A DNA stretch of 64,000 nucleotides from Casimicrobiaceae bacterium (GCA_036382945.1 DASVPH010000030.1:7387-71386); one strand, 5' to 3'. Positions 26,171 through 52,589 are shown, numbered from the stretch's first letter. Made by a program: numbers and translations. Notes: generated by a model not told the origin, from the sequence alone.

Positions 26171-28531
26171 CTATATCGTCAGCTTGCGCAGCATCTCCGG
26201 GTTCTTGATCACCGCCTTCTGCCGGCCGACCGGAGCGCCGTACAAGCCGGCGGGCGGATTGGTTTCGAGCCGGTTCAGCACCGAAGCCTGGGTGCAGCGC
26301 GAGTCAAACGTGACCGACACCCGGTCTGCGTTGACGCCACCGAGGCCGAAACAGGTCTGGCCGAGCTTCGCGTTGAGCGGCTTGAGCACGCCGTTCGCGA
26401 CGATGTCGCCCGGATCGCCGGTCGCCGCAGCCTGCAGCTCGTAGAGGCGCGGTTTGGCCGGGGGGCGCGCGATGGCCGCGATCAGCTCGGGCAGGCCGAG
26501 GAGCTCGCGCGCGAGCAGCTCCTCCGCGGCCGCGTCGGGCATGCCGGTGACAAGCAGCCTGATCGGCCGGCTCGTGACACTCGCGTGCTGCACGAAGAAC
26601 TCGCGCGAGAACTCGTCGGCGATCTTCGCGCCGACCGCCCGCAGCGCCTCTTCCTCGCTGGCCCAGCTCCCGACGCCTTTGGGCAGCGCCGTGTTGTAGT
26701 AGATCTCCTCGCCCGTCTCGCGATCCACGCCCTTCACCGTCCACGAGGTGAGCGCGTATTTCGTCACCGTGAGACCGGAGGCTTGCAGGCGCCTGGAAAG
26801 CCTCTTGATCTGTGCTTCGCCGAGCACCGCCACGTCGGCGCTCTTGCCGCTGTCGCCGGCGCCCTGCACCCACGTGCGAAAGCCGAACGCCTTGATGCGC
26901 TCCTTCAAGATGTTCTCGGCGACCGGGGAAGGCTGCGGCGGAGCATCCGGCCGATCGGCGTCGCGCACCGTGATCTGCACCGACACCTTCGGATCGCCGC
27001 TGGCGCGAATAAGCTCGACGCGCTCGTCGCGCGACATCTGGTTGAGCGACTTCTGGACGGCCTTGACGTTGACCAGCGCTTCGGTCGTGATCGACATCAG
27101 CCCGTCCTTGCCCAGGCGCGGCTCGCTCTCGCGCACCACGGCGGTGATGTAGTTGCTGCTGTTCGCGAGAAGGCGCTCCTTGAGCAGGTCGTAGTTCTTG
27201 GCGAACGAGCTCGCGTCGAGCAGGAGAGCCACCGCCTTGGCGACGACCTGGCTCTTGGAGTCCAGCCGCAAATCGCTCTGCAGCAGCGCCTGGTCGCCCT
27301 GGTAACGCGGATCGCTCGGATCGATCAGGCCCACCGCGGCGATCCGCAGCGTTCCAGGCTCGGATTCGGGTGTCGCCGCCGTCGCGCCCGGCGCGGGCGG
27401 GGTTGCGGACGGCGAGGCGGGCGCTGCGCGGCTCGCCATGGACATGGGCATCGCCGGTGGCTGCGCCGATTTGGCGCTATCGGTCGCTTGGCGCGGAAAG
27501 ATGAACCATGCTACGGCACCCACGACGACGGCTGCCGCCACGGCGACGATCGGGACTGCGGCGCTGCGCGCCGTCTTGGGCGGCGGTGCGGCCGCGGTCG
27601 ACGTCTGCGCCGAGAGATTGACGGCGGCCGCCGTGTTGGCCAGGGTCGCCTCTGCGGCGGCAACGAGCGTCGGGTCGGAATGCCCGGCAGACGTCGCCGA
27701 GGCGATGCGCGAGGCCGTTGCCGCCGCGCGCATCGCCTCGGCAAACTCCTGCGCGCTCTGGAAGCGCTCCTCAGCGCGCTTGGCCATCGCTTTGTTCACC
27801 ACCGCGTCCATCGCCGGCGGGAGCTGAACGTTGAGCGTGGAGGGCGGCAGCGGCTCTTCCTTGAGCACTTTCTGCATGGTCGTCGCCGCCGATCCGGCGA
27901 AGGGTTTCTCCCCGGTCAGGAACTGGTAGAGCACCACACCTGCCGAGAACAGGTCCGAGCGTGCGTCCACCGGCAGGCCCATGATCTGCTCGGGCGACAT
28001 GTAGCTCGGCGTGCCCATCACCGTGCCGACCTGCGTCAGGTTCGACGATTCGATGTGCGCGATCCCGAAATCGGCGACCTTCACCGAGCCATCGGGAAGC
28101 AGGAAGATGTTCGCGGGCTTGACATCGCGGTGGATCACGCCCTGGCGATGCGAGTAGTCGAGCGCGCTGAGGATCTGCGTCATGATCCGCACGATCTCGG
28201 CGATCCCGAAGCGCTCGTTCGCGTCGAAGCAGCGCTTGAGCTCGCGACCCTGGACGAACTCCATGGCGATGAACCAGGCGCCGTCTTCCTCGCCGAAGTC
28301 GTAGATCGATACGATGTTGGGGTGATTGAGCCGGCCCGCCGCCTGGGCTTCGCGGCGGAAGCGGGCGATCACCGCGGCCGCGTCTTCGCCGGCGAGCTGG
28401 TCCGAACGGATCGTTTTGAGCGCGACGATGCGCTTGATCATGGGATCGTAGCCCTCGTAGACCACGCCCATCGCGCCACGTCCGAGCTCGCGTCGGATCT
28501 CGTATTTGCCGATGCTCTCCTGCTCTGCCAT
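26171..28531 (-). CDS. Hanks-type Ser/Thr protein kinase with TM helix and large periplasmic domain
   Basis: GRGAMGVVY, VALK, HRDVKPAN, DFG and GTPSYMSPE. TM helix at about aa 324-345 (AVPIVAVAAAVVVGAVAWFIF), then ~440 aa extracytoplasmic. Confidence 0.9.
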   Translation of the reverse strand: MAEQESIGKYEIRRELGRGAMGVVYEGYDPMIKRIVALKTIRSDQLAGEDAAAVIARFRREAQAAGRLNHPNIVSIYDFGEEDGAWFIAMEFVQGRELKRCFDANERFGIAEIVRIMTQILSALDYSHRQGVIHRDVKPANIFLLPDGSVKVADFGIAHIESSNLTQVGTVMGTPSYMSPEQIMGLPVDARSDLFSAGVVLYQFLTGEKPFAGSAATTMQKVLKEEPLPPSTLNVQLPPAMDAVVNKAMAKRAEERFQSAQEFAEAMRAAATASRIASATSAGHSDPTLVAAAEATLANTAAAVNLSAQTSTAAAPPPKTARSAAVPIVAVAAAVVVGAVAWFIFPRQATDSAKSAQPPAMPMSMASRAAPASPSATPPAPGATAATPESEPGTLRIAAVGLIDPSDPRYQGDQALLQSDLRLDSKSQVVAKAVALLLDASSFAKNYDLLKERLLANSSNYITAVVRESEPRLGKDGLMSITTEALVNVKAVQKSLNQMSRDERVELIRASGDPKVSVQITVRDADRPDAPPQPSPVAENILKERIKAFGFRTWVQGAGDSGKSADVAVLGEAQIKRLSRRLQASGLTVTKYALTSWTVKGVDRETGEEIYYNTALPKGVGSWASEEEALRAVGAKIADEFSREFFVQHASVTSRPIRLLVTGMPDAAAEELLARELLGLPELIAAIARPPAKPRLYELQAAATGDPGDIVANGVLKPLNAKLGQTCFGLGGVNADRVSVTFDSRCTQASVLNRLETNPPAGLYGAPVGRQKAVIKNPEMLRKLTI

Positions 28532-28600: not shown

Positions 28601-29437
28601 TCACTTGTACTTGTTGTCGATATCCCACACCGATTTCTGCACGAGGCGCTGCACCATGGTGTCGAGCGACACGCCGCCCTGCTGCGACTGGGAAACGCCG
28701 AGCGCCCCCGACGAGGTCGCGCCGATCTCCATCTTTTCCTCGGTGTAACCGGTGGCGACCTGCTCGGTGGTCTCGGCGTTGATGATCTTGTAGCGCATGC
28801 CGATGACCCAGACGCTGGTCGCCTCGTTCGAACGCACCGAGCCCACCGCGGTGCCGCCCAGCGCACCGGCTTCGGCTCCGCCGCGCGAGCCACTGAACGC
28901 GCCCAGGATCCCCACCATCTGCCCGAGCGTGCGGCCGTCGAACCCCTGTTGAGCCGCAGCGACCTGTTCGGTCTTGAGGATGTCGAATTTCACGACGTAC
29001 TTGGTGGTTTTGAGCTTGCCCATGCGCAACATCTTGCGCGCTGAGTCCTGGTCGCCCAAGTTGTAGGCGAGCTCGAATTCCTTGAGCAGCGGGCCCAGGT
29101 TCGAACGCTCCAGCACCGTGAAGTTGGCGCTGGACAGCTCGACCTCGCCGAAGTCCGCGATGTTGTTGGCCGTGAACTTCTGCAGGAACGTCGCATTGTT
29201 GCTCTTGATCTCGCCGGGGATCACGATCACCGCCGGTCCTTTCTTGCCGGCGTTGGTGTACGTGACCGGCTGATAGATCGTCTGGTCGGCCGCGGCGTTC
29301 GCCTTCTGCGAGGTCTCTTTGCCGGCGGTCGGCGACGGGTTGCCCCACGTCGGCTGGGCGGAGGCGAGCGAGGCCGCCGCGAAGAGCGCCGCCCCGAGCA
29401 GGTACTTGGAGATGTCGACTGACGCGCGATGTTTCAT
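28601..29437 (-). CDS. CsgG/HfaB-like secreted protein (no lipobox)
   Basis: 278 aa with signal peptide ...AAASLASA|QP. VLERSNLGPLLKE and WVIGMRYKIINAETTEQV follow the CsgG-like pattern. Confidence 0.7.
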   Translation of the reverse strand: MKHRASVDISKYLLGAALFAAASLASAQPTWGNPSPTAGKETSQKANAAADQTIYQPVTYTNAGKKGPAVIVIPGEIKSNNATFLQKFTANNIADFGEVELSSANFTVLERSNLGPLLKEFELAYNLGDQDSARKMLRMGKLKTTKYVVKFDILKTEQVAAAQQGFDGRTLGQMVGILGAFSGSRGGAEAGALGGTAVGSVRSNEATSVWVIGMRYKIINAETTEQVATGYTEEKMEIGATSSGALGVSQSQQGGVSLDTMVQRLVQKSVWDIDNKYK

Positions 29438-29486: not shown

Positions 29487-30173
29487 TTACTTCGCCGCCG
29501 GCTTGCGGGCAGAAGCCGGTCCGGCCCTGCGACAATAATCCGCGTAGAGTGCGGGTACCACCTCGTCCGCGTTCTCGTTGACCAGCGTCAGCGCCATGCG
29601 CTCGACGTTCGCTCCCGCATACGAGCTCGAGCTCGTTTCGGTGTCGGAAATGAGCCGACCGTCGCTGCCGTAGAGCGTGAACTTCATGTTCACCGACACC
29701 TGGTTGACCGCCATCATGGGATTGCGGGCGGCCTGCGACGAGATCAGCCCGCGCAGCACGAAGCTCGCCCCGAGGCGCTTCGAAGCGCTGAGCATGGCGT
29801 CCGGGTCGTTCCTGAAGTAGGCGTCGATCTCGGCTTGCGCGATCTGCCGGCGGATTTCCTCGGGCGTATAGGTGCGAAGCCCGAGCGCGCGCAGCCGCGC
29901 GTTGATCGACTGGAAGTGCGGGCCGTAGTTCTGCTGCTGCGCTGCAATATAGCCGTTCGACTGCCGCTCGCCGATCACCAGCATGATCTTCTTGCCCTTG
30001 AGCTCGGCGCGGCACGGCGTTGAGAGCTGTTCGGCGATGCGATCCTGGCGCGCCTCCTGCTCGAGCCGGTCGGACTCGTCGGGTTGCGAGAACTTGAAGC
30101 CTTGAGCGAGCGCCGGTCCCGACGCAAGCATGGCGAGCGCAACGAGCGTCGGCAGGACAGGTCCTATTCGCAT
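29487..30173 (-). CDS. secreted hypothetical protein (228 aa)
   Basis: Start at MRIGPVLPTLVALAMLASGPALAQG (signal peptide). Same strand, 49 nt upstream of the CsgG-like gene. Confidence 0.6.
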   Translation of the reverse strand: MRIGPVLPTLVALAMLASGPALAQGFKFSQPDESDRLEQEARQDRIAEQLSTPCRAELKGKKIMLVIGERQSNGYIAAQQQNYGPHFQSINARLRALGLRTYTPEEIRRQIAQAEIDAYFRNDPDAMLSASKRLGASFVLRGLISSQAARNPMMAVNQVSVNMKFTLYGSDGRLISDTETSSSSYAGANVERMALTLVNENADEVVPALYADYCRRAGPASARKPAAK

Positions 30174-30351
30174 CGGTTTGGGTCGTAGCGCCGGTCGGGC
30201 GGGGGCCATCAAAAGCTTTCGCAGGTTAGCCCAACGCCAACCGGAAATCCATAGGACTATTCGACAACGCGGTAGACGCGCAGCAAGCCCCGCGCCCCAA
30301 GCCTCGCCGAGCGCTCGGAGCGGGTCCCTCTGTACAACGTGTAGCGCTCGA

Positions 30352-44126: not shown

Positions 44127-45005
44127 ATGACCACCGCCGTAGTCTCCACGGCAACCATTCCGCGCGACGTTTCGCCCGGACAGCGCGCGCTCAGGCGGCT
44201 CGTCCGACGGCGCGGCGCGATGGTGGCGCTGGGCGTAGTGGCGTTTTTCGTCGCCGTCGCGCTGCTCGCGCCGCTGCTCTCTCCGTACGATCCGGTCGCC
44301 ACGAGCTGGAGCGCGGTGCGCAAAGGCCCGTCCGCGGCGCACTGGTTCGGCACCGACGAGATCGGCCGCGACGTGCTCGCGCGCGTGATCTTCGGCACAC
44401 GGGCGTCGCTCCTCGCCGGCGTGGTGTCGGTGTCGATCGCGCTCGCCTTCGGCGTGCCGATCGGACTCACGGCAGGGTATGTCGGCGGCTGGGTCGACGC
44501 GCTCATCTCACGCATGACCGACGCGATGCTCGCCTGCCCGTTCCTGATTCTCGCCATCGCGCTCGCGGCGTTCCTCGGGCCGAACCTCACCAACGCGATG
44601 ATCGCGATCGGCATCTCCGCCACGCCGATCTTCATCCGCCTGACGCGCGCCCAGGTGCTGCACGTCAAGGTCGAGGACTACGTCGAGGCCGCGCGCGCGG
44701 TCGGCAACTCGCACCTGCGCATCGCGCTCCGGCACATCCTGCCCAACATCGTGCCGCCGCTGATCGTGCAGGCGACACTCGCGGTGGCCGCGGCGATCAT
44801 CGCCGAAGCCGCGCTGTCTTTCCTTGGCCTGGGCCAGCAACCCCCGGCGCCCTCGTGGGGTAGCATGCTCAACACCGCGAAGAACTACATCGACAACGCG
44901 CCCTGGATGGCGATCTGGCCCGGGCTGTCGATCTTCCTGCTGGTGCTCTCGTTCAACCTGCTGGGCGACGGCTTGCGCGACGCGTTCGATCCGCGGGGCG
45001 GGTAG
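44127..45005 (+). CDS. ABC transporter permease (DppC-like)
   Basis: 292 aa. GTDEIGRDVL and the C-terminal GDGLRDAFDPR are typical of DppC/OppC. Confidence 0.88.
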   Translation: MTTAVVSTATIPRDVSPGQRALRRLVRRRGAMVALGVVAFFVAVALLAPLLSPYDPVATSWSAVRKGPSAAHWFGTDEIGRDVLARVIFGTRASLLAGVVSVSIALAFGVPIGLTAGYVGGWVDALISRMTDAMLACPFLILAIALAAFLGPNLTNAMIAIGISATPIFIRLTRAQVLHVKVEDYVEAARAVGNSHLRIALRHILPNIVPPLIVQATLAVAAAIIAEAALSFLGLGQQPPAPSWGSMLNTAKNYIDNAPWMAIWPGLSIFLLVLSFNLLGDGLRDAFDPRGG

Positions 45006-45147
45006 CGGCGCGAGCCCGCAGCGAGGGGCCCCACGCGTGAGCGGGGGGATCGCGCGAGGCGAGTCGACGCTGGCGGCCGACGCGCAATGGGACCCTTCAC
45101 AGTCAGGGGTTCAAGGAGGCCGCGGCGCGAGCCCGCAGCGAGGGGCC
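45005..45147. repeat. 65-nt GCGAG-rich element plus a 26-nt partial second copy
   Basis: 45006-45070 is about 88% identical by eye to the reverse complement of 62281-62344. GCGGCGCGAGCCCGCAGCGAGGGGCC repeats at 45005-45030 and 45122-45147. Confidence 0.8.
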
Positions 45148-45201
45148 TCCGCCACGGCCACGCGAATTCCTCTCGTCGGGTCGTCGGCCCTTGCGTCCGG
45201 C

Positions 45202-46590
45202 TCACTCGAACTCGATGAAGCCGACTTCGCGGAGGAACGCGCCGCGCTCCTGGCTGCCGAGGTGATCGGCGACGAGCTGGACGAATTGCTGGCGATTCGC
45301 CGCTTTCTGGGCAGCCTTGCGCGTCACGACCTTGGCGATCGGGCCCAAGTACACCGTGAGCCGCGACGTCGTCTCCTCGACGAACGCCGGGTCGAGCGGC
45401 GCCAGCGCTTCCTGGTTGCCCGAGAACGAGCGCAGCTGCGGCGGCAGCGTCCCGCGCACGCTCGTGGCCGCCGGCCGGGTGCTCGAACGCTCCGCCGCGG
45501 CGCGCTGCAACCCGTCGATGAATCTCTGGCGCACCTCGGGGTCGGTGATGCTGTCGGAGATCAGCGCGTAGAGCTCGGAGGTATCCCGCGACTTCGCCGC
45601 AGCCTTCTTCACCATCACCCGCGCCATCGGCCCGACCAGGTCGGCGAGCTCGCGCTCGATGGTGTGCAGCGTGGTGTCGTCCCAGACCGGCGGGCTTTGA
45701 GCCTGCAGCGTCACCGCGGCCAGATTGATCTCGGTGGCGTCCTGCATCTCGCGCTTTCCGGAAAGCTCGGGATCGAGCGCGAGGCGAAGCGCCCGGTTGA
45801 AGGCCTTGGCGTTCTGGAAGCGCGCCGCGCAATCCTTGGCGAGCGCGGTTTGCACCACCGCGTCGAGCGTCGGCGAGATCGAAAGCTTGGAGATCGCGGA
45901 GGGCGGGCGGGGATCCTCATAGCAGATTTTGAAGGCGATCGCCTCGATCGAGCCCGAGAACGGCTTCTCGCCGGTGAGCAGCTCGTAGAGAACCACGCCC
46001 ACGCTGAACAGGTCGGAACGCCGATCGATCTCCTTTCCCTGGCACTGCTCCGGCGACATGTACGACGGCGTCCCCATGACCATGCCGGCGTTGGTCAGGT
46101 TCGAGGTGTCGATGCGTGCGATCCCGAAGTCGGCGACCTTGAGCGCGCCGCTGCCGGTGAGGATCAGGTTGGCGGGCTTGACGTCGCGGTGCACCACCCC
46201 GCGCTCGTGCGCGAAGTCGAGCGCCAGCAGCAACTGCGAGGTGATGGCGACGATCTGGCCGATGTCGAAGGTCGCCTTGCGGTTCAGGTACTCGCGCAAC
46301 CCCGTGCCTTCGACGTACTCCATGGCGATGAAAGCGTTGCGCTCGTCCTCGCCGTATTCGTAGACGCTGACGATGTTCGGATGCAGCAGGCGTCCGGCGG
46401 CCTTCGCCTCGTTCTGGAAGCGGGCCATCACCTGCGCGGCGAGGTCCGGGTCGACCAGATCCTTGCGCACGGTCTTCACCGCCACCACGCGCTCGATGCC
46501 CGGATCGAACGCCTTGTACACGACCCCCATCGCGCCCTTGCCGAGCACGCTCTGGATCAGGTACTTGCCGATTTTTTCCGGTTCGCTCAT
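45202..46590 (-). CDS. Hanks-type Ser/Thr protein kinase, soluble, with C-terminal tandem repeat
   Basis: GKGAMGVVY, VAVK, HRDVKPAN, DFG and GTPSYMSPE, with no TM segment. Two ~55-aa repeats are centred on LVGPMARVMVKKAA and LGPIAKVVTRKAA. Confidence 0.9.
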   Translation of the reverse strand: MSEPEKIGKYLIQSVLGKGAMGVVYKAFDPGIERVVAVKTVRKDLVDPDLAAQVMARFQNEAKAAGRLLHPNIVSVYEYGEDERNAFIAMEYVEGTGLREYLNRKATFDIGQIVAITSQLLLALDFAHERGVVHRDVKPANLILTGSGALKVADFGIARIDTSNLTNAGMVMGTPSYMSPEQCQGKEIDRRSDLFSVGVVLYELLTGEKPFSGSIEAIAFKICYEDPRPPSAISKLSISPTLDAVVQTALAKDCAARFQNAKAFNRALRLALDPELSGKREMQDATEINLAAVTLQAQSPPVWDDTTLHTIERELADLVGPMARVMVKKAAAKSRDTSELYALISDSITDPEVRQRFIDGLQRAAAERSSTRPAATSVRGTLPPQLRSFSGNQEALAPLDPAFVEETTSRLTVYLGPIAKVVTRKAAQKAANRQQFVQLVADHLGSQERGAFLREVGFIEFE

Positions 46591-46612
46591 CGCAGTGTGC
46601 GCCGCTCGGCGG

Positions 46613-47485
46613 TTACGCCTCGAGCATCTTGATCGCCTGTACCAGGCTCTTGTTCATCCGCGCTAGCGCCTGGGTGAGCACGCCGATCTCGTCCTTGCTC
46701 TTCGACTTGAACTCTCCGCTCTCCAGGTGGCCGAGGCTCACGTCGTCGGCGAGCTTCGCCAGGTGCTTGACCCGCTGGACCACGATCGAGTGCAGCATGA
46801 CGTTGATCAGGATGAAGGTGACGACGAGCACGAGAGTGAGCAGCAGCATGAACACCTTGAACGTAGTGTTGGCGCGTTGGATCGGGAGCGCGCTGGGCAC
46901 GGAGACGATCTGGGCGCCGATGATCTCGTTTAACTTCCAGCCGAAGCCGTTGGCCGGCCCGTAGAGCGCGACCATGGTCTTCGGCGCCTCGGCGACCGTG
47001 TTGTGGCAGGCGAGGCACGCGCCGTCCTTGATCTGGATCGGCCGCGCCAGGTAGAGCGAGCGCCCGGCGGGCGTTTCCCGCTCGCCGGTGAGCTCACCCT
47101 TGACCGCTCCGTTGCGAAACTGGTTGACCACGTCGGCCTCCCAGTCGGTCGCGCGATCGCGCGGATTGGTCGGGTTGAGCGTGGCCTCCTTGTAGCTGTA
47201 ATCGGGGTACTTCTTGCGCAGATCGTTGAACTGCTCGGTCGCGGCGTACGCCGGCACCGACTGCGGCAGGAAGGAGTACTTGAGCTGCGTCTCGAGCAGG
47301 GGCTTGATCTGGGTGTTGGTATAGGTGCGCGAGGACAGTGCGGATTCCATCATCACCCGCGCGTTGTCGAGGATCTCCTCGCGGGCGTTGGCCCGGAGCA
47401 CGCCGTAGGAAACCAAAGCGGTGATCGCGAAGCCGATGACGAACACCGCCAGCAGCGCAATATTGAATTTCCACATCAGCTTCAT
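46613..47485 (-). CDS. DUF3365 (Tll0287-like, CxxCH) periplasmic domain - TM - HAMP protein
   Basis: 290 aa: TM1, a periplasmic domain with CLACH, TM2, then HAMP (DEIGVLTQALARMN). It ends right after HAMP. GAGAGGGGA lies upstream of the ATG. Confidence 0.8.
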   Translation of the reverse strand: MKLMWKFNIALLAVFVIGFAITALVSYGVLRANAREEILDNARVMMESALSSRTYTNTQIKPLLETQLKYSFLPQSVPAYAATEQFNDLRKKYPDYSYKEATLNPTNPRDRATDWEADVVNQFRNGAVKGELTGERETPAGRSLYLARPIQIKDGACLACHNTVAEAPKTMVALYGPANGFGWKLNEIIGAQIVSVPSALPIQRANTTFKVFMLLLTLVLVVTFILINVMLHSIVVQRVKHLAKLADDVSLGHLESGEFKSKSKDEIGVLTQALARMNKSLVQAIKMLEA

Positions 47486-47513
47486 GCGATCCCCTCTCGT
47501 GCTCGCCGCACGC

Positions 47514-48422
47514 TCATTTCTTGTTGTCGCCGCCGAACGGCCATCGGAATCTCGGTTCCACCTTCTCCGCTGCCTTGGGCGGCGGCTCGGGCGGAGGCGG
47601 CGCGACCACGGCCTGCCACTCCGGGTACGCTTGGAGCTTCGCCATGACCGGCGCGCGAAAGTCGGGATCGGAAAGCCGCGGCTGCAGCCGCTTGAGAAAC
47701 ATCCGCCGGTACGGACCGGTGAGCCATGGCTCGGCTTCGACGTAGCTGATCGGTCGGTCGGCGGCAAGCTGCGCGCGGACCACCTGATATTGCGCGGCGC
47801 GCGCGGGCAGCGCGTCCCGGAAAGGCCGCGGCATCGCGGCGACGAAGCTCTGCGGTGGGGCACCCGCCGTCGCGAACGGCCGATCGGCGGCGCGCAGCGC
47901 GAAATCGCCGCTCTTGACGTCGTGCGCGGCGCCGTCTGCTCCGCTCTTGCCCGGCTCCAGCATCTTCGCGTTTCCCGCTTCGACGAAAGCCTCGAGCGCA
48001 TCGCTCGACGCGTGCACCACCGCCACGGCATCGGCCGCGCTGAGCGCTCCGGCTGCGGTGCGCACCCGCAGCGCCGCGCCGGGCGGTTTGGCGGAGAGCT
48101 TCACCCAACCGGAAGGCAGGTACATTTCCGCGGGCGCCGCCCTGGCGCCTTCGCGGGTACCGGACGCAACCGCGAGAAGCGACGTCGGCCCGACGAAATT
48201 CACGATCGGCCCCGTGGCGAGCTCGACCTGAACCTGCGCGCGATCCGGCGCGTCGATCAGATCGCCGTCCTGCACGCGCGCCCCTTCGACGAGCTTGTAC
48301 CAGGTCGCGCCGCGCAGGATGCGCGCGTTGCCGTCGAGGATCGTGACCACCCCGACCTCGGCGCCGTAACACAGGGCGGACGCGAGAAGGAAAAAACACC
48401 CGGCCAGCCAAGTCGTCTTCAT
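47514..48422 (-). CDS. FecR-like secreted protein
   Basis: Signal peptide MKTTWLAGCFFLLASALCYGA. GNARILRGATWYKLVEGARVQDGDLI is a FecR-domain-like beta segment, and the tail is Pro-rich. Confidence 0.55.
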   Translation of the reverse strand: MKTTWLAGCFFLLASALCYGAEVGVVTILDGNARILRGATWYKLVEGARVQDGDLIDAPDRAQVQVELATGPIVNFVGPTSLLAVASGTREGARAAPAEMYLPSGWVKLSAKPPGAALRVRTAAGALSAADAVAVVHASSDALEAFVEAGNAKMLEPGKSGADGAAHDVKSGDFALRAADRPFATAGAPPQSFVAAMPRPFRDALPARAAQYQVVRAQLAADRPISYVEAEPWLTGPYRRMFLKRLQPRLSDPDFRAPVMAKLQAYPEWQAVVAPPPPEPPPKAAEKVEPRFRWPFGGDNKK

Positions 48423-48572
48423 CGCGGGACACCGCCTGATCGCCATCCAGAACGGCGGCGCGCGTTGGATACTAGGACGCGCGCTCGAAGACTGTCAACG
48501 TGATTATTCTCGGGCGGCGGGGCGAGCTGCGCCGGGCTTGGCCCGCGTGCCTTATACTTGTCCGCCGGGCCC

Positions 48573-49460
48573 ATGGAAAAAGCGCCGCGCAACCTCGCCG
48601 TGCTGTTCGCCGACATCAGCGGCAGCGCCAAGCTCTACGAAACGCTGGGCGACGCCGAGGCGCTCGCCACCGTCGAGCGCTGCCTCGCGATCATCGAGCA
48701 GGCGTGCGTCGACAGCGGCGGCCGGATCGTCAAGACGATCGGCGACGAAGTGATGGCGGTCTTTCACGCGGCCGACGGCGCGGCGCGCGCCGCGACCGAC
48801 ATGCAGGCGCGGATCTCCTCGCAGCGGACCGCGCGCGGCGCGCCGCTCGCGATCCACGTCGGCTTCAACTTCGGCCCGGTGCTCGAGGAAGGCAACGATG
48901 TGTTCGGCGACGCGGTCACCATCGCGGCGCGGCTGGCGAACCTCGCCCGCGGCGGCCAGGTGTTCACTTCCGCGCCGACGGTCGCCGAGCTGGCGCCGGG
49001 GCTGCGCGCCCGGACTCGCAGCCAGCAGGCGCACACCGTCAAGGGCAAGCAGAAGGACATCGATCTGTTCGAGCTGGTATGGCAGGAGACCGAGGACGAG
49101 CTGACGGCGCTCTCCACCCACGTCAAGCTCCGCCCCGCGCACCTCACGCTGACGCACGGCGAGCGCCGGATCGAGCTCTCCGAGGCAATGCCGGCGCTCT
49201 CCATCGGCCGCGATCTGCAGAACGACGTCGTAATCGCCGACCGCAAGGCTTCGCGCATGCACGCCCGCATCGAGCGGCGGCGCGACAAGTTCGTGCTGAT
49301 CGACCACAGCTCCAACGGGACCTACGTCACCGTGCAGGGCGAGGCCGAGATCCTCCTGCGCCGCGAGGAGTTGATCCTGCGCAACCGCGGCCAGATGAGC
49401 TTCGGCCACGCCTATCGGGACGATACGGCGGAGTTTCTCGGGTTCTCCTGCCTCGATTGA
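48573..49460 (+). CDS. class III adenylate/guanylate cyclase domain fused to FHA domain
   Basis: LFADISGS, KTIGDEVMAVF and FGDAVTIAARL (cyclase), then SIGRD..NDVVI.D...SR.HA.I......F.L.D..S.NGT (FHA). Confidence 0.85.
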   Translation: MEKAPRNLAVLFADISGSAKLYETLGDAEALATVERCLAIIEQACVDSGGRIVKTIGDEVMAVFHAADGAARAATDMQARISSQRTARGAPLAIHVGFNFGPVLEEGNDVFGDAVTIAARLANLARGGQVFTSAPTVAELAPGLRARTRSQQAHTVKGKQKDIDLFELVWQETEDELTALSTHVKLRPAHLTLTHGERRIELSEAMPALSIGRDLQNDVVIADRKASRMHARIERRRDKFVLIDHSSNGTYVTVQGEAEILLRREELILRNRGQMSFGHAYRDDTAEFLGFSCLD

Positions 49461-49511
49461 GGCGAAGCCAAGCCTTCGGCCCGGGATGGACCGCCTTCCT
49501 ATATAGATCGA

Positions 49512-49910
49512 TCAACCGCTGCCCGAGCCGCTGTTGCGTAGCGTTCTTGCCAGCGCCAGCACCGGCTCCGGCGCGTCGCGCAACGCCTCGCTCCGCAGCG
49601 CTATCTCGTCGATGAGCCGGGCGACCGTACCTTCCTGCGGCAGCGCGATGCCGTAATGCAGAAGCGAGCCGCCGCGATAGATCGCGATGGTCGGGAAATT
49701 CTCGACGTCGATGTCACCGCACACCGCAGCGTCGTCCTCGATGTCGAGCCAGAGGCAAAGCGCTTCGGGACGCATGCCGGCGATGCGCTCGAACGCCGCC
49801 CTGAACTCGGTGCAGGTATCGCACCAGGCGGCGCACAACACGACCGCCACCAGCCGATCCTCGGTCCAGCGCGACGCGATGGCGCTCCGATCCGCGGCAG
49901 TGGCGATCAT
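49512..49910 (-). CDS. thioredoxin-like protein (WCDTC)
   Basis: 132 aa. VVLCAAWCDTC plus FPT...Y fit a Trx fold. It starts 9 nt after the metH stop on the same strand. Confidence 0.7.
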   Translation of the reverse strand: MIATAADRSAIASRWTEDRLVAVVLCAAWCDTCTEFRAAFERIAGMRPEALCLWLDIEDDAAVCGDIDVENFPTIAIYRGGSLLHYGIALPQEGTVARLIDEIALRSEALRDAPEPVLALARTLRNSGSGSG

Positions 49911-49919
49911 GCGATCATG

Positions 49920-52589
49920 CTACGCGAGACTCGGCGAGAGCGCCCGGCGCAGCGCGTCGCTCGCCTCACCCGAGCGGCGCGCGAGGTCGGCGAGCTGGTC
50001 CTCGCCGATCTTGCCCACCGCGAAGTAGACCGCTTCCGGGTGCGCGAGGTAGAAACCCGCTACCGACGCGGCGGGGAGCATCGCGTAGCTCTCGGTGAGC
50101 TGCATCCCGATTTTGCGCGCCTGCAAGAGCTCGAACAGCGCCGCCTTGGCGGTGTGGTCGGGACAGGCGGGATAGCCCGGTGCGGGGCGGATGCCGCGGT
50201 ATTCCTCGCGGATCAGCGCCGCGTTGTCCAGCGCCTCCTCCGGCGCGTAGCCCCAGTATTCGCGCCGCACGCGCATGTGCAGCCATTCGGCGAAGGCCTC
50301 CGCCAGGCGATCGGCCAGCGCCTTCAACATGATCGCGCCGTAATCGTCCTTCCTCGCTTCGAGCTCGGCGAGCTTCTTCTCGATGCCGAGCCCCGCGGTA
50401 ACGGCGAACGCCCCCGCGAAGTCCGCCACACCCGACGCTTTGGGCGCGACGAAGTCGGCCAGACAATAATTGGGTTTGCCCGGCGGCCGCAAGTTCTGCT
50501 GGCGCAAGTTGCGCCAGGTTAGCGCGACTGTGGCGCGCGAAGCGTCGGCGTAGAGCTCGATGTCGTCGCCCGCCGAGTTCGCGGGCAGGAGCGCTATCGC
50601 CCCGTTGGCGGTGAGCCAGCGTCCCTGGACGATTTGCTCGAGCATCGCCCGACCGTCGGCGTACACGTTGCGTGCAGCCTCGCCCACGACCGGGTCGTCG
50701 AGGATCGCGGGAAACGGCCCGGAGAGCTCCCAAGTCTGGAACAACGGCGCCCAGTCGATGTAGCGGGCGAGCTCCGCGAGATCCGCGTTGCGGATTTCCC
50801 GCCGGCCCACGAGCGCCGGCCGCGGCGGCGCGTAGCCGCGCCAATCGGCCTTGAAGGCGTTGGCGCGCGCCGTCTCCAGAGAGATCAGCTCGGGTCCCTT
50901 CTTGGCGGCATGCTGGGCGCGGACCCTGTCGTAGTCCGCGGCGACCTCGCGCGCATAGGCGTCGCGCCGCTCGGGGGAGATGAGGCTCGCCGCCACACCC
51001 ACCGCGCGCGAGGCGTCCGGCACGTACACGGTAACGCCGGCGTAGTTGGGCGCGATCTTCACCGCGGTGTGCACGCGCGAGGTCGTCGCCCCGCCGATCA
51101 AGAGCGGCTGCCGCATCTCAAGCCGCTGCATTTCGTGCGCGACATGTGCCATCTCCTCGAGCGACGGGGTGATGAGTCCCGAGAGCCCGACGATATCGGC
51201 GTTTCTCTCGCGCGCGGTGTCGAGGATCTTCTGCGCGGGCGCCATGACGCCCAGATCGATTACCTCGAAGTTGTTGCACTGGAGCACCACCCCGACGATC
51301 TTCTTGCCGATGTCGTGCACGTCGCCCTTCACCGTTGCCATCACAATCGTGCCTTTCGGCTTGCCGCCCTCACCGGAAGCCGCCTTCTCCGCCTCGATGA
51401 ACGGCACCAGGTGCGCCACCGCCTGCTTCATCACCCGCGCGCTCTTCACCACCTGCGGCAGGAACATCTTGCCCGCACCGAACAGATCGCCCACCACGTT
51501 CATGCCCGCCATCAGCGGCCCCTCGATGACCTGGATCGGCCGCGGATACTTGCGCCGCGCCTCCTCGGTGTCGTCGATGATGTAGGTGGTGATGCCCTTG
51601 ACCAGCGCGTGCGTGAGGCGCTCCTCGACGCTGCCCGCGCGCCATGCGAGATCCTCTTCCGCCTTGCGGCCCTTCGCCTTGTAGGTTTCGGCGAACGCGA
51701 CCAGGCGGTCGGTGGCATCGGGACGGCGGTTCAAGACCGCGTCCTCGACCCGCTCGCGCAACTCCGGATCGAGGTCGTCGTAGACGCCGAGCTGACCGGC
51801 GTTGACGATGCCCATGGTGAGCCCGGCGCGGATCGCGTGATAGAGGAACACGGTATGGATCGCCTCGCGCACCGGATCGTTGCCGCGGAAACTGAAGCTC
51901 ACGTTGGAGATGCCGCCGGAGACCTTGGCGTGCGGCAAATGCTGCTTGATCCACGCGGTGGCACGTATGAAATCGACCGCGTAGTTGGCGTGCTCCTCGA
52001 TGCCGGTGGCGATCGCGAACACGTTCGGGTCGATGATGATGTCCTCGGCCGGGAAGCGGACCTTGTCGACCAACAGATCGTAGGCGCGGCGGGCGATCGC
52101 GATCCGGCGCTCGTAGGTGTCGGCCTGTCCGTGCTCGTCGAAACACATGACGATTGCCGCCGCGCCATAGCGCCGAACGAGCCGCGCCTGGCGCAGGAAC
52201 TCCGCCTCACCCTCTTTCAGCGAGATCGAGTTGACGACCGGCTTCCCCTGCACGCATTTCAAGCCGGCTTCGATCACCTCCCATTTCGAGGAGTCGATCA
52301 TGACCGGCACGCGGGCGATGTCGGGCTCGGCGGCGATCAGGTGCAGGAATTTCACCATCGCCGCCTTGGAATCGAGCATCGCCTCGTCCATGTTGACGTC
52401 GATCATCTGCGCGCCGTTGCCGACCTGCTGCCGCGCGACCTCGACCGCGCCCGTGAAATCGCCGGCGAGGACCAGCTTGGCGAAGGCGCGCGAGCCGGTG
52501 ACGTTGGTGCGCTCGCCCACGTTGACGAACAGCGAGTCCTCCGCGATGGTGAGCGGCTCGAGGCCGGCTAGGCGGAGCGGCTGCGGCAT
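49920..52589 (-). CDS. metH: methionine synthase, pterin-binding + B12-binding + activation domains (split MetH, large subunit)
   Basis: It begins [12 protein letters not shown]...[13 protein letters not shown], equivalent to E. coli MetH from about residue 350. It has the B12 motif DVHDIGK and an AdoMet activation domain. Confidence 0.92.

Follow-up and report, generated by a model that had tools for sequence, protein, structure and literature searches.

The 64,000-nucleotide stretch of DNA analysed here, from a Casimicrobiaceae bacterium (GCA_036382945.1 DASVPH010000030.1:7387-71386) and referred to below as the window, contains at positions 45,202 to 49,460 a module of four genes. A minus-strand operon (48446 to 45202) encodes a FecR-like protein, a Cache_heme-HAMP receptor (CHH) and a Hanks-type Ser/Thr kinase, and a gene for a class III cyclase fused to an FHA domain is located divergently upstream of it. 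Comparison with other genomes and with metagenome contigs showed that this four-gene arrangement is found far beyond chance, on dozens of independent contigs with differing flanking genes. The receptor and the kinase very probably belong to a family characterised in Pseudomonas azotoformans, in which a soluble kinase docks on the HAMP domain of a heme receptor that binds nitric oxide (NO). We lean slightly towards a complete relay, in which the docked kinase would have the cyclase as its output through the fused FHA domain.

Reading the genes anew from the sequence gave the three-gene operon of the original prediction, with intergenic gaps of exactly 28 and 22 nt. All four genes were found where they had been placed, and the domains claimed for them were recognised by Pfam in the case of the kinase, DUF3365, HAMP (weakly), cyclase and FHA. 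The host is an uncultured soil betaproteobacterium of Casimicrobiaceae type; a protein that NCBI lists for a Casimicrobiaceae metagenome-assembled genome matches the cyclase-FHA protein with 100% identity. The coordinates of the features are collected in Table 1.

The receptor and its docked kinase

The pairing of a receptor of this type with a Hanks kinase had been considered uncharacterised, which is out of date: the orthologues from P. azotoformans, a CHH receptor and a docked Ser/Thr kinase, were described in a 2026 preprint (Deshpande, Xu, Dunleavy, Zhulin, Crane; bioRxiv 10.64898/2026.05.25.727664). The DUF3365 domain has been redefined as a heme c-containing Cache domain, whose signalling-type members have the spectra and the ligand binding typical of NO sensors and not of O2 sensors (bioRxiv 10.64898/2026.02.01.703092). 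A Ser/Thr kinase gene adjoins such receptors in most genomes, and the affinity of kinase for receptor is nanomolar and independent of ATP, with one kinase per receptor dimer; two C-terminal helical bundles of the kinase are responsible for binding, their helices IGPLARFLVRKSLN and IGPIARIVVSRALR lying against HAMP (10.64898/2026.05.25.727664).

One of the loci collected in this work, L085, allowed the window proteins to be compared with the published pair. The L085 kinase is identical to the published N-terminus (supplement) over 113 amino acids and contains both published docking peptides verbatim, and the L085 receptor, of 292 amino acids, has a threonine at residue 256 (VSLGE-T-DVPP). Comparison of the window proteins with those of L085 showed that the receptors are 51% identical end to end and that the catalytic domains of the kinases are 57% identical. 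Because of these identities, and because the helices VGPMARVMVKKAAA and LGPIAKVVTRKAAQ of the window kinase correspond to the published docking helices IGPLARFLVRKSLN and IGPIARIVVSRALR, membership of the window receptor and kinase in the CHH-kinase family is very probable.

The receptor bears out the architecture predicted for it, a 290-amino-acid chain made of a first transmembrane (TM) helix, a DUF3365 domain with a CLACH motif, a second TM helix and HAMP. The sCache_heme domain (Pfam PF11845, Tll0287-like/DUF3365, E 7e-42, residues 32-197) lies between two hydrophobic segments, read by eye, at residues ~7-29 (TM1) and ~208-232 (TM2). The heme c motif, C157-L-A-C160-H161, is a canonical CXXCH, and C157, C160 and H161 were invariant among 44 receptor homologues of 35-56% identity. 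The matches to HAMP were weak, both with Pfam (E 0.005) and with the HAMP domain of Af1503 (E 0.009, residues 233-289), which was the only match of the receptor in a PDB search made on a set without the cryo-EM entries 35YX and 35YV. The chain stops at residue 290, directly after HAMP, and has no output domain; more than 8000 receptor homologues were found and nearly all of them are of ~290 amino acids.

Within HAMP, the stretch A-D-x-V-S250-L-G252 is invariant in the receptors. Ser250 (codon 46736-46738) was found in every receptor examined (~130), unlike the residue of the published phosphosite column, and it may have a structural role, be a docking contact or be a conserved phospho-acceptor. 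Some proteins of the representative library (P0358, P0318, P0346, P0257 and P0262) have a Cache_heme domain closely related to that of the receptor but fused to other outputs, namely a protein kinase domain (P0358), TIR, a SpoIIE/PP2C phosphatase with HATPase_c_2, and histidine kinases. HATPase_c_2 is a domain of the type occurring in anti-sigma-factor kinases.

The kinase had been predicted to be soluble, and indeed no TM helix was visible by eye in its translated sequence. Its catalytic domain is PknB-like and extends over residues 8-266 (Pfam Pkinase, E 1.6e-53); PknB structures align to it at 4e-56 (1mru), and it keeps the VAVK, HRDVKPAN and DFG motifs with the ATP-binding Lys, the HRD Asp and the DFG Asp. 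The C-terminus consists of two helical repeats containing the IGPxAR-type HAMP-docking helices VGPMARVMVKKAAA and LGPIAKVVTRKAAQ, and PASTA domains are absent. Orthologues of the kinase carry PF26309 (DUF8082) in precomputed annotation; the Pfam set used here was without the DUF8082 model, and the C-terminal part of the window kinase is therefore without a Pfam match. Three threonines of the kinase are conserved: T166, which corresponds by alignment to T171 of the PknB activation loop, T174 and T286. The conservation of T166 is ~100%, and that of T286, which is just past the catalytic domain, is 91-100% in three context groups (104 kinases). Threonines conserved solely in cyclase-linked loci were sought among these 104 kinases and none was decisive.

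The cyclase-FHA fusion

The divergent gene encodes a protein made of a cyclase domain (residues 1-170), a disordered linker (173-185) and an FHA domain (190-295), the two domains being matched by Pfam with E values of 2.5e-14 (Guanylate_cyc) and 6.9e-13 (FHA). Its start is most likely the ATG at 48573, giving 295 amino acids, and not the TTG at 48558, because 120 of 120 homologues among the matches listed are of ~295 amino acids and start with MxxxxRNLAVLF, and because a conserved -10-like TATACT (48553-48558) covers the TTG.

Alignment with 3mr7 and Ma1120 showed that the cyclase has the two metal-binding aspartates (D14 and D58), the Lys/Asp pair that specifies adenine in the substrate (K54 and D109) and the transition-state arginine (R120). 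These five residues are invariant within the clade of the window protein (67-100% identity). Among 39 orthologues derived from the loci described below, D14, D58, D109 and R120 were invariant, and position 54 was a lysine in 32 and a glutamine in 7. The Lys/Asp pair predicts that the substrate is ATP. The transition-state asparagine is replaced by Thr116 (GDAVT instead of GDxVN; codon 48918-48920), which is the sole non-canonical catalytic position; the description of the cyclase as divergent in the original prediction thus holds for one position, while the remaining catalytic residues are canonical. A threonine was present at position 116 in 31 of 31 sampled homologues of at least 67% identity, whereas an asparagine was present in 17 of 17 homologues of at most 65% identity and in 35 of the 39 orthologues derived from the loci.

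The AlphaFold2 model of the fusion had a mean pLDDT of 84.9, with means over blocks of 10 residues of ~78-96 for residues 1-150 and of 60-80 for residues 151-170. The linker (residues 173-185, pLDDT below 50) was the only low-confidence segment and lies between two well-predicted domains. In Foldseek searches the modelled cyclase matched Ma1120 and Rv1900c with an E value of 6e-13 and a target-normalised TM-score of 0.85-0.90, and no solved structure in the PDB set searched covered both the cyclase and the FHA domain (query-normalised TM-score of at most 0.52). The phosphothreonine-binding residues of the FHA domain (G212-R213, S227-R-M-H230 and N248-G249) were invariant in 48 homologues, and Thr178 of the linker was invariant in 39 cyclase-FHA sequences of 46-85% identity.

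Conservation of the module across genomes

Two scans were made. The genome scan, on one genome per GTDB species and with an 11-sequence receptor alignment, returned at least 595 loci, of which the best 80 were kept; the scan of metagenome contigs with the N-terminus of the kinase returned 80 loci, which are anchored on the kinase. The final counts were taken from tblastn coordinates, as a GC3-based gene caller missed genes, for example the cyclase gene in L006 and L035. The loci of the genome scan are mostly from Burkholderiales-type betaproteobacteria (Casimicrobiaceae, Rhodocyclaceae, Variovorax, Piscinibacter, Azohydromonas and Rubrivivax).

The linkage of the four genes, for which a synteny check had been proposed with the original prediction, recurs in these loci. 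Of the 124 evaluable loci, 107 (63 of 76 from genomes, 44 of 48 from metagenomes) have the FecR-like gene immediately before the receptor gene and in the same orientation. The kinase gene was directly downstream of the receptor gene in 67 of 76 genome loci and, by construction, in 51 of 51 of the kinase-anchored metagenome loci. A cyclase-FHA gene was located divergently upstream in 26 of 71 genome loci and 14 of 36 metagenome loci, that is, in 40 of the 107 evaluable loci, among varying outer neighbours. Type VI secretion system (T6SS) genes (TssM or TagH) were found in 12 genome and 18 metagenome loci and PP2C in 5 and 25, respectively, and cyclase-FHA co-occurred with T6SS genes or PP2C in none of either set.

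The cyclase-FHA orthologues at these loci are 43-87% identical to the window protein. The divergent spacer is usually of 150-200 bp and ranged from 108 to 459 bp in the 46 loci in which both gene starts were placed, two of which (L001 and L002) come from direct look-up and not from the two scans. The module was present in five of five look-ups anchored on cyclase-FHA and in one anchored on the receptor, despite differing outer neighbours; in one look-up (L167) the FecR-like slot was left empty by the gene caller. In a neighbour-joining tree built from the receptors, the loci with the cyclase link spread over a single broad clade, with ~10 state changes (gains or losses), and the T6SS-linked loci occupy another part of the tree.

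The FecR-domain protein

The first gene of the operon had been treated as incidental in the original prediction. The counts given above show that it is, on the contrary, a core conserved part of the module. The claim that it encodes a secreted FecR-like protein was borne out in part. Its N-terminus resembles a signal peptide by eye (...LLASALCYG/AEV), but the match of the window protein itself to Pfam FecR (E 0.03, residues 59-152) was below the cut-off, whereas 27 of 59 orthologues matched with an E value of at most 0.01 (2.8e-8 for the best) and the Caballeronia orthologue is named "FecR domain-containing" by the NCBI PGAP pipeline. On this sequence evidence the window protein is accepted as homologous to FecR by transitivity through its orthologues. 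A search of solved structures with a sequence profile of the family gave no match.

The protein probably has the periplasmic FecR domain in common with the FecR-type anti-sigma regulators (Pfam PF04773), which serve in the signalling of iron transport, the domain being weak in the window protein and clear in orthologues, yet it is not one of them. Unlike these regulators, it has by eye neither an N-terminal cytoplasmic anti-sigma segment nor a TM anchor, and unlike in FecR systems no gene for an ECF sigma factor or a TonB-dependent receptor is adjacent to it in the window; the heme receptor and the kinase are the partners with which it is constantly associated. In the main text of the preprint on the P. 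azotoformans pair (10.64898/2026.05.25.727664), the terms "FHA" and "FecR" are absent and "cyclase" is mentioned only in passing, within the names of domains, and the FecR-domain periplasmic partner is new here. In the P. azotoformans-like loci L086 and L124, too, the gene immediately before that of the characterised receptor is FecR-like (Table 1).

The divergent spacer

The region between the operon and the cyclase gene had been given as 150 bp. The divergent layout stands, and the spacer between the FecR-like and cyclase starts measures 126-150 bp once the cyclase start is moved to the ATG at 48573. On the operon side, TTGACA-18-TAGTAT is the only promoter-like match in positions 44800-50000, and orthologous spacers have the pattern TTGAC-N17/18-CTAGTAT conserved at the equivalent position, with the 8-mer CCTAGTAT in 27 of 38. 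On the cyclase side, an element containing a second 8-mer, AGTATAAG, in 21 of the 38 orthologous spacers aligns just upstream of the cyclase start. We infer that this element (TGCCTTATACT/AGTATAAGGCA) is a putative cyclase promoter with a -10-like TATACT. The AGTATAAGGCA element is -10-like in either orientation. As the spacer contains two conserved elements, the two transcription units have a conserved back-to-back control region. No site for a shared regulator was identified in the divergent spacer among the 38 orthologous spacers.

Alternative gene contexts of the core

Sister loci without cyclase-FHA often adjoin T6SS genes, namely those of TagH (FHA + T6SS_FHA_C), TssM, TagF and TssA, together with PP2C (Table 1). 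These T6SS-type loci belong to Pseudomonas-like bacteria, Caballeronia, Variovorax, Azohydromonas, Piscinibacter and Rhizobacter. In P. azotoformans-like loci the order is FecR-like gene, receptor, kinase and PP2C, to which close Pseudomonas-like relatives add TssM. This context, which is not taken up in the main text of the 2026 preprint, suggests that the NO-responsive kinase acts as a PpkA-like regulator of the T6SS in loci of this type. In a further locus (L014) the gene of a stand-alone FHA protein is directly after that of the kinase. Because cyclase-FHA, TagH and stand-alone FHA all occur, FHA proteins are a recurrent partner of the kinase, in at least three forms.

In four loci that lack the kinase, the gene in its place, directly downstream of the receptor, encodes a cyclase-like domain joined to the two docking helices that the kinase otherwise bears. 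Read from their sequences, these cyclase-like domains keep the metal Asp, the Asn and the Arg and differ from the window enzyme at the substrate-specifying positions. No FecR-like gene was found by tblastn in the four loci (L062, L066, L081 and L082). Through the docking-helix fusion, this receptor type is connected with cyclase-like outputs independently of the kinase.

Neighbouring genes and features of the window

The module is flanked by convergent housekeeping genes, those of a dpp-type ABC transporter on one side and a thioredoxin-like gene and a split metH on the other side. At a distance of 17 kb from the docked kinase, the window encodes a second Hanks kinase. This protein of 786 amino acids combines a single TM helix with a large extracytoplasmic region in which Pfam recognised no domain, and in the catalytic domain it shares 56% identity with the docked kinase. 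Two genes neighbour it on the same strand (Table 1), and the next gene is weakly CsgG-like with a signal-peptide-like N-terminus.

Table 1. Positions of the features described, in the window (upper rows) and in other loci (lower rows, given with the handle of the locus)
Feature	Positions	Strand	Basis or remark
Soluble Hanks-type Ser/Thr kinase, 462 aa	45202..46590	-	Pfam, PknB structures, docking helices
Cache_heme (DUF3365/Tll0287)-TM-HAMP receptor (CHH), 290 aa	46613..47485	-	Pfam, homologues, alignment
Periplasmic FecR-domain protein, 302-310 aa, first gene of the operon	47514..48446	-	Pfam FecR in orthologues; alternative ATG 48422
Sigma-70-type promoter of the FecR-receptor-kinase operon (TTGACA, 18 nt, TAGTAT)	48469..48498	-	10/12 positions
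Conserved motif TGCCTTATACT (AGTATAAGGCA on the operon strand), 14 nt before the cyclase ATG	48548..48558	+	38 spacers
Class III adenylate cyclase (predicted)-linker-FHA, 295 aa	48573..49460	+	Pfam, structure alignment, AlphaFold2 model, Foldseek
Second Hanks kinase, 786 aa	26171..28531	-
Neighbour of the second kinase	28601..29437	-
Neighbour of the second kinase	29487..30212	-
FecR-like gene in P. azotoformans-like loci	L086:4197-5078, L124:4107-5078		directly upstream of the characterised receptor
T6SS-adjacent core loci	L052, L055, L060, L061, L064, L067, L071, L075, L077, L084, L088-L116
TagH, example	L067:5822-6976
TssM, example	L067:12129-15698
PP2C/TagF/TssM, example	L084:8283-12870
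Cyclase-like/docking-helix fusions	L062:8890-10005, L066:4908-6071, L081:8881-9978, L082:1660-2793		kinase-less loci

Proposed relay and alternative explanations

The relay that we lean towards would work as follows. The heme c sensor domain would bind a small ligand, which is NO in the orthologue, where this step was shown experimentally. The HAMP domain, without an output domain of its own, would be a platform onto which the soluble kinase clamps through its two C-terminal helical repeats, and binding of the ligand would alter what the docked kinase phosphorylates, as was shown for both steps in the orthologue. The periplasmic FecR-domain protein, judging from its gene context, may act on the sensor domain or modulate it. 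The FHA domain of the cyclase would then bind a phosphothreonine made by the kinase, on T166 or T286 of the kinase or on Thr178 of the cyclase, and this binding may recruit or dimerise the cyclase and so change the synthesis of cAMP.

The original prediction proposed a comparable relay, from periplasmic heme and redox sensing through HAMP and the kinase to an FHA-gated cyclase. Its first half, from sensor through HAMP to kinase, agrees with the experiments on the orthologue, while its second half, from kinase through FHA to cyclase, draws on comparative genomics. The picture of redox sensing differs from that of the orthologue, in which NO was the ligand tested and, without it, little difference was seen between the ferric and the ferrous state (10.64898/2026.05.25.727664). 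In the step from HAMP to kinase, the kinase docks on HAMP and also phosphorylates it, Thr256 of HAMP being phosphorylated more when NO is bound to the heme. The authors of the preprint find it unlikely that the catalytic domain is controlled directly, and they state that the downstream consequences are unknown (10.64898/2026.05.25.727664). The cyclase-FHA protein, to which gene context and residue conservation point, is a plausible candidate for this output.

The phosphothreonine concerned is unlikely to be that of the published site. Alignment of the receptors showed that Thr256, the only mapped phosphosite of the orthologue, corresponds to Leu254 in the window (VSLGH-L-ESGEF), that L, M or F predominate at this position among ~130 receptors, and that a threonine is present in only 5 of 34 T6SS/PP2C-type sequences; the Thr256 phosphosite is, from this alignment, not a conserved feature of the family. 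No HAMP column with a conserved threonine was found among 38 cyclase-linked receptors, the best being column 271 (17 of 38). These observations bear on the alternative that the FHA domain reads a HAMP phosphothreonine, the phosphorylated receptor being a platform that recruits the cyclase, which we regard as improbable. It would agree with the phosphorylation of HAMP Thr256 by the P. azotoformans kinase, enhanced by NO, and with HAMP being the sole cytoplasmic part of the receptor. The invariant hydroxyl of HAMP is however that of Ser250, and FHA domains prefer phosphothreonine and discriminate strongly against phosphoserine. The reading of phosphorylated Thr256 by FHA was rejected on the receptor alignment, and a phosphothreonine on HAMP, if this is what the original prediction meant, is not supported. 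Because the position is Leu254 in the window, the FHA domain would read a phosphothreonine other than that of the Thr256 site, most likely T166 or T286 of the kinase or Thr178 of the cyclase linker.

Several further observations weigh, with the absence of Thr256 and the preference of FHA domains, against the cyclase as the output of the kinase. Cyclase-FHA was present in only ~37% of the evaluable loci, and in 30 genome loci, all having 2.1 kb or more of upstream and 4 kb or more of downstream sequence, tblastn found neither cyclase-FHA nor TssM/TagH nor PP2C; spot checks within these 30 loci showed a stand-alone FHA protein in L014 and TssA in L050. A PP2C phosphatase accompanies no locus of the cyclase type. 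Change of the transition-state Asn lowers kcat substantially in mutagenesis of mammalian cyclases. Divergent neighbours can be independently regulated, and the second Hanks kinase of the window could be the real partner of the FHA domain. On the side of the sensor, covalent heme and NO binding were shown for a single Pseudomonas protein, that of P. azotoformans (10.64898/2026.05.25.727664).

Alternatively, cyclase-FHA might be an independent neighbour, regulated by another kinase (for example the one at 26171-28531) or by none, its adjacency being due to inheritance as a block. We consider this rather unlikely. The cyclase gene is divergent and not co-transcribed with the operon, a conserved promoter-like element lies on each side, ~60% of CHH-kinase loci are without cyclase-FHA, and a second kinase with 56% identity in the catalytic domain is encoded at a distance of 17 kb. 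Against this, the orientation and the usual spacer length persist over 43-87% protein identity while the outer neighbours change, the cyclase-FHA context and the T6SS or PP2C contexts are mutually exclusive, as expected of alternative outputs of one core, and the receptor and the kinase were alongside in all five cyclase-anchored look-ups. The Asn to Thr substitution raises the different question of whether the cyclase of the window clade is a weak or inactive pseudo-enzyme, acting as a phospho-dependent scaffold and not as a source of cAMP. The strict separation of Thr116 (every homologue of at least 67% identity) from Asn (all of at most 65%) agrees with such a role, but the invariance of D14, K54, D58, D109 and R120 in the Thr clade argues for a selected active site and not for decay, and the modelled fold is that of an intact class III cyclase. 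A clade-wide Thr116 with an intact active site is more readily explained by an enzyme that is altered yet functional than by decay, and the pseudo-enzyme seems improbable to us. An anti-phage defence module, combining a PD-T4-6-type kinase with a Pycsar-type cyclase, was brought up by matches of the kinase to PADLOC PD-T4-6 models (2e-100 for the best) and by a weak match of the cyclase to PycC (1.7e-8). These matches span only the generic catalytic domains of kinase and cyclase, the receptor and the FecR-like protein are without a PADLOC match, and no gene of a cyclic-nucleotide-activated effector is beside the cyclase. As the kinase also has HAMP-docking repeats, the operon is orthologous to a characterised sensory system and the flanks are housekeeping genes, this explanation is hardly credible; it was rejected on the PADLOC coverage and the absent effector gene.

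Returning to the relay with the cyclase as output of the docked kinase, a wider version of it can be proposed, tentatively and with some doubt. The CHH receptor and its docked kinase might be a general input device for FHA-protein outputs, the output being the FHA-gated cyclase in a large clade of soil betaproteobacteria and the T6SS, through TagH, in Pseudomonas, Burkholderiaceae and Comamonadaceae. In this wider version the FecR protein might be an obligatory third subunit of the sensor, and Thr178 might be a switch, either intramolecular as in GarA or based on dimerisation as in Chk2.

The window locus and its relatives offer testable candidates, cAMP and the T6SS, for the downstream output left open by the 2026 preprint. 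If the relay is true, Hanks-kinase signalling would be joined to cyclic-nucleotide signalling in bacteria by a fused FHA domain, and it would be the first bacterial route from periplasmic heme and NO to cAMP through Ser/Thr phosphorylation. The production of cAMP or the firing of the T6SS would then serve as a physiological readout for periplasmic NO sensors of a new class, which soil metagenomes contain in great abundance.

Comparison with known systems

Literature searches on FHA-cyclase fusions, on DUF8082 and on NO with the T6SS phosphorylation pathway returned nothing relevant; a conserved FHA-gated cyclase coupling, a coupling to T6SS genes and a constant FecR-domain partner were not found in the literature searched.

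The closest system is that of P. azotoformans. The receptors have the same architecture, with 290 amino acids in the window and 292 in P. azotoformans, the P. azotoformans kinase is likewise soluble and PknB-like with two C-terminal docking repeats, and the receptor gene is followed by that of the kinase in both. As in the window, a FecR-like gene precedes the receptor in the P. azotoformans-like loci L086 and L124. Unlike P. azotoformans, the window has Leu254 for Thr256, no PP2C after the kinase, and a divergent gene for a predicted adenylate cyclase fused to FHA. The cyclase domain shares its fold, the metal Asp pair, the Lys/Asp pair and the Arg with the class III cyclases Ma1120 of M. avium, Rv1900c of M. 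tuberculosis and 3mr7 of Ruegeria (Silicibacter) pomeroyi, from which the clade of the window protein differs by a Thr instead of the Asn and by the C-terminal FHA domain.

In the threonine phosphorylation pathway of the T6SS, the kinase PpkA acts on Fha1/TagH, the other components being the PP2C phosphatase PppA and TagF; PpkA itself is a membrane protein with a periplasmic domain. The logic is alike in that an envelope signal is passed to a Hanks kinase and then to an FHA protein as reader. Unlike PpkA, the window kinase is soluble and docks on a separate heme receptor, and the FHA domain of the window is fused to an adenylate cyclase as predicted from its Lys/Asp pair. The T6SS pathway is described as a positive regulator of the T6SS in PMC5995506. 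BLAST of the open reading frames of the 64-kb window returned no PP2C, no TagH C-terminal domain, no TssM and no other T6SS gene.

Among the FHA switches that Hanks kinases drive, GarA and OdhI are intramolecular phosphothreonine-FHA switches, and in PknB the activation loop or the linker, once phosphorylated, is a docking site for FHA. Like these systems, the module has a PknB-like kinase with a single FHA effector, a conserved threonine in the activation loop and an invariant threonine in a disordered segment adjacent to FHA. Unlike GarA and OdhI, the effector of the module is a nucleotide cyclase and not a metabolic inhibitor, and the candidate phospho-acceptor is located between the enzyme and the FHA domain and not at the N-terminus.

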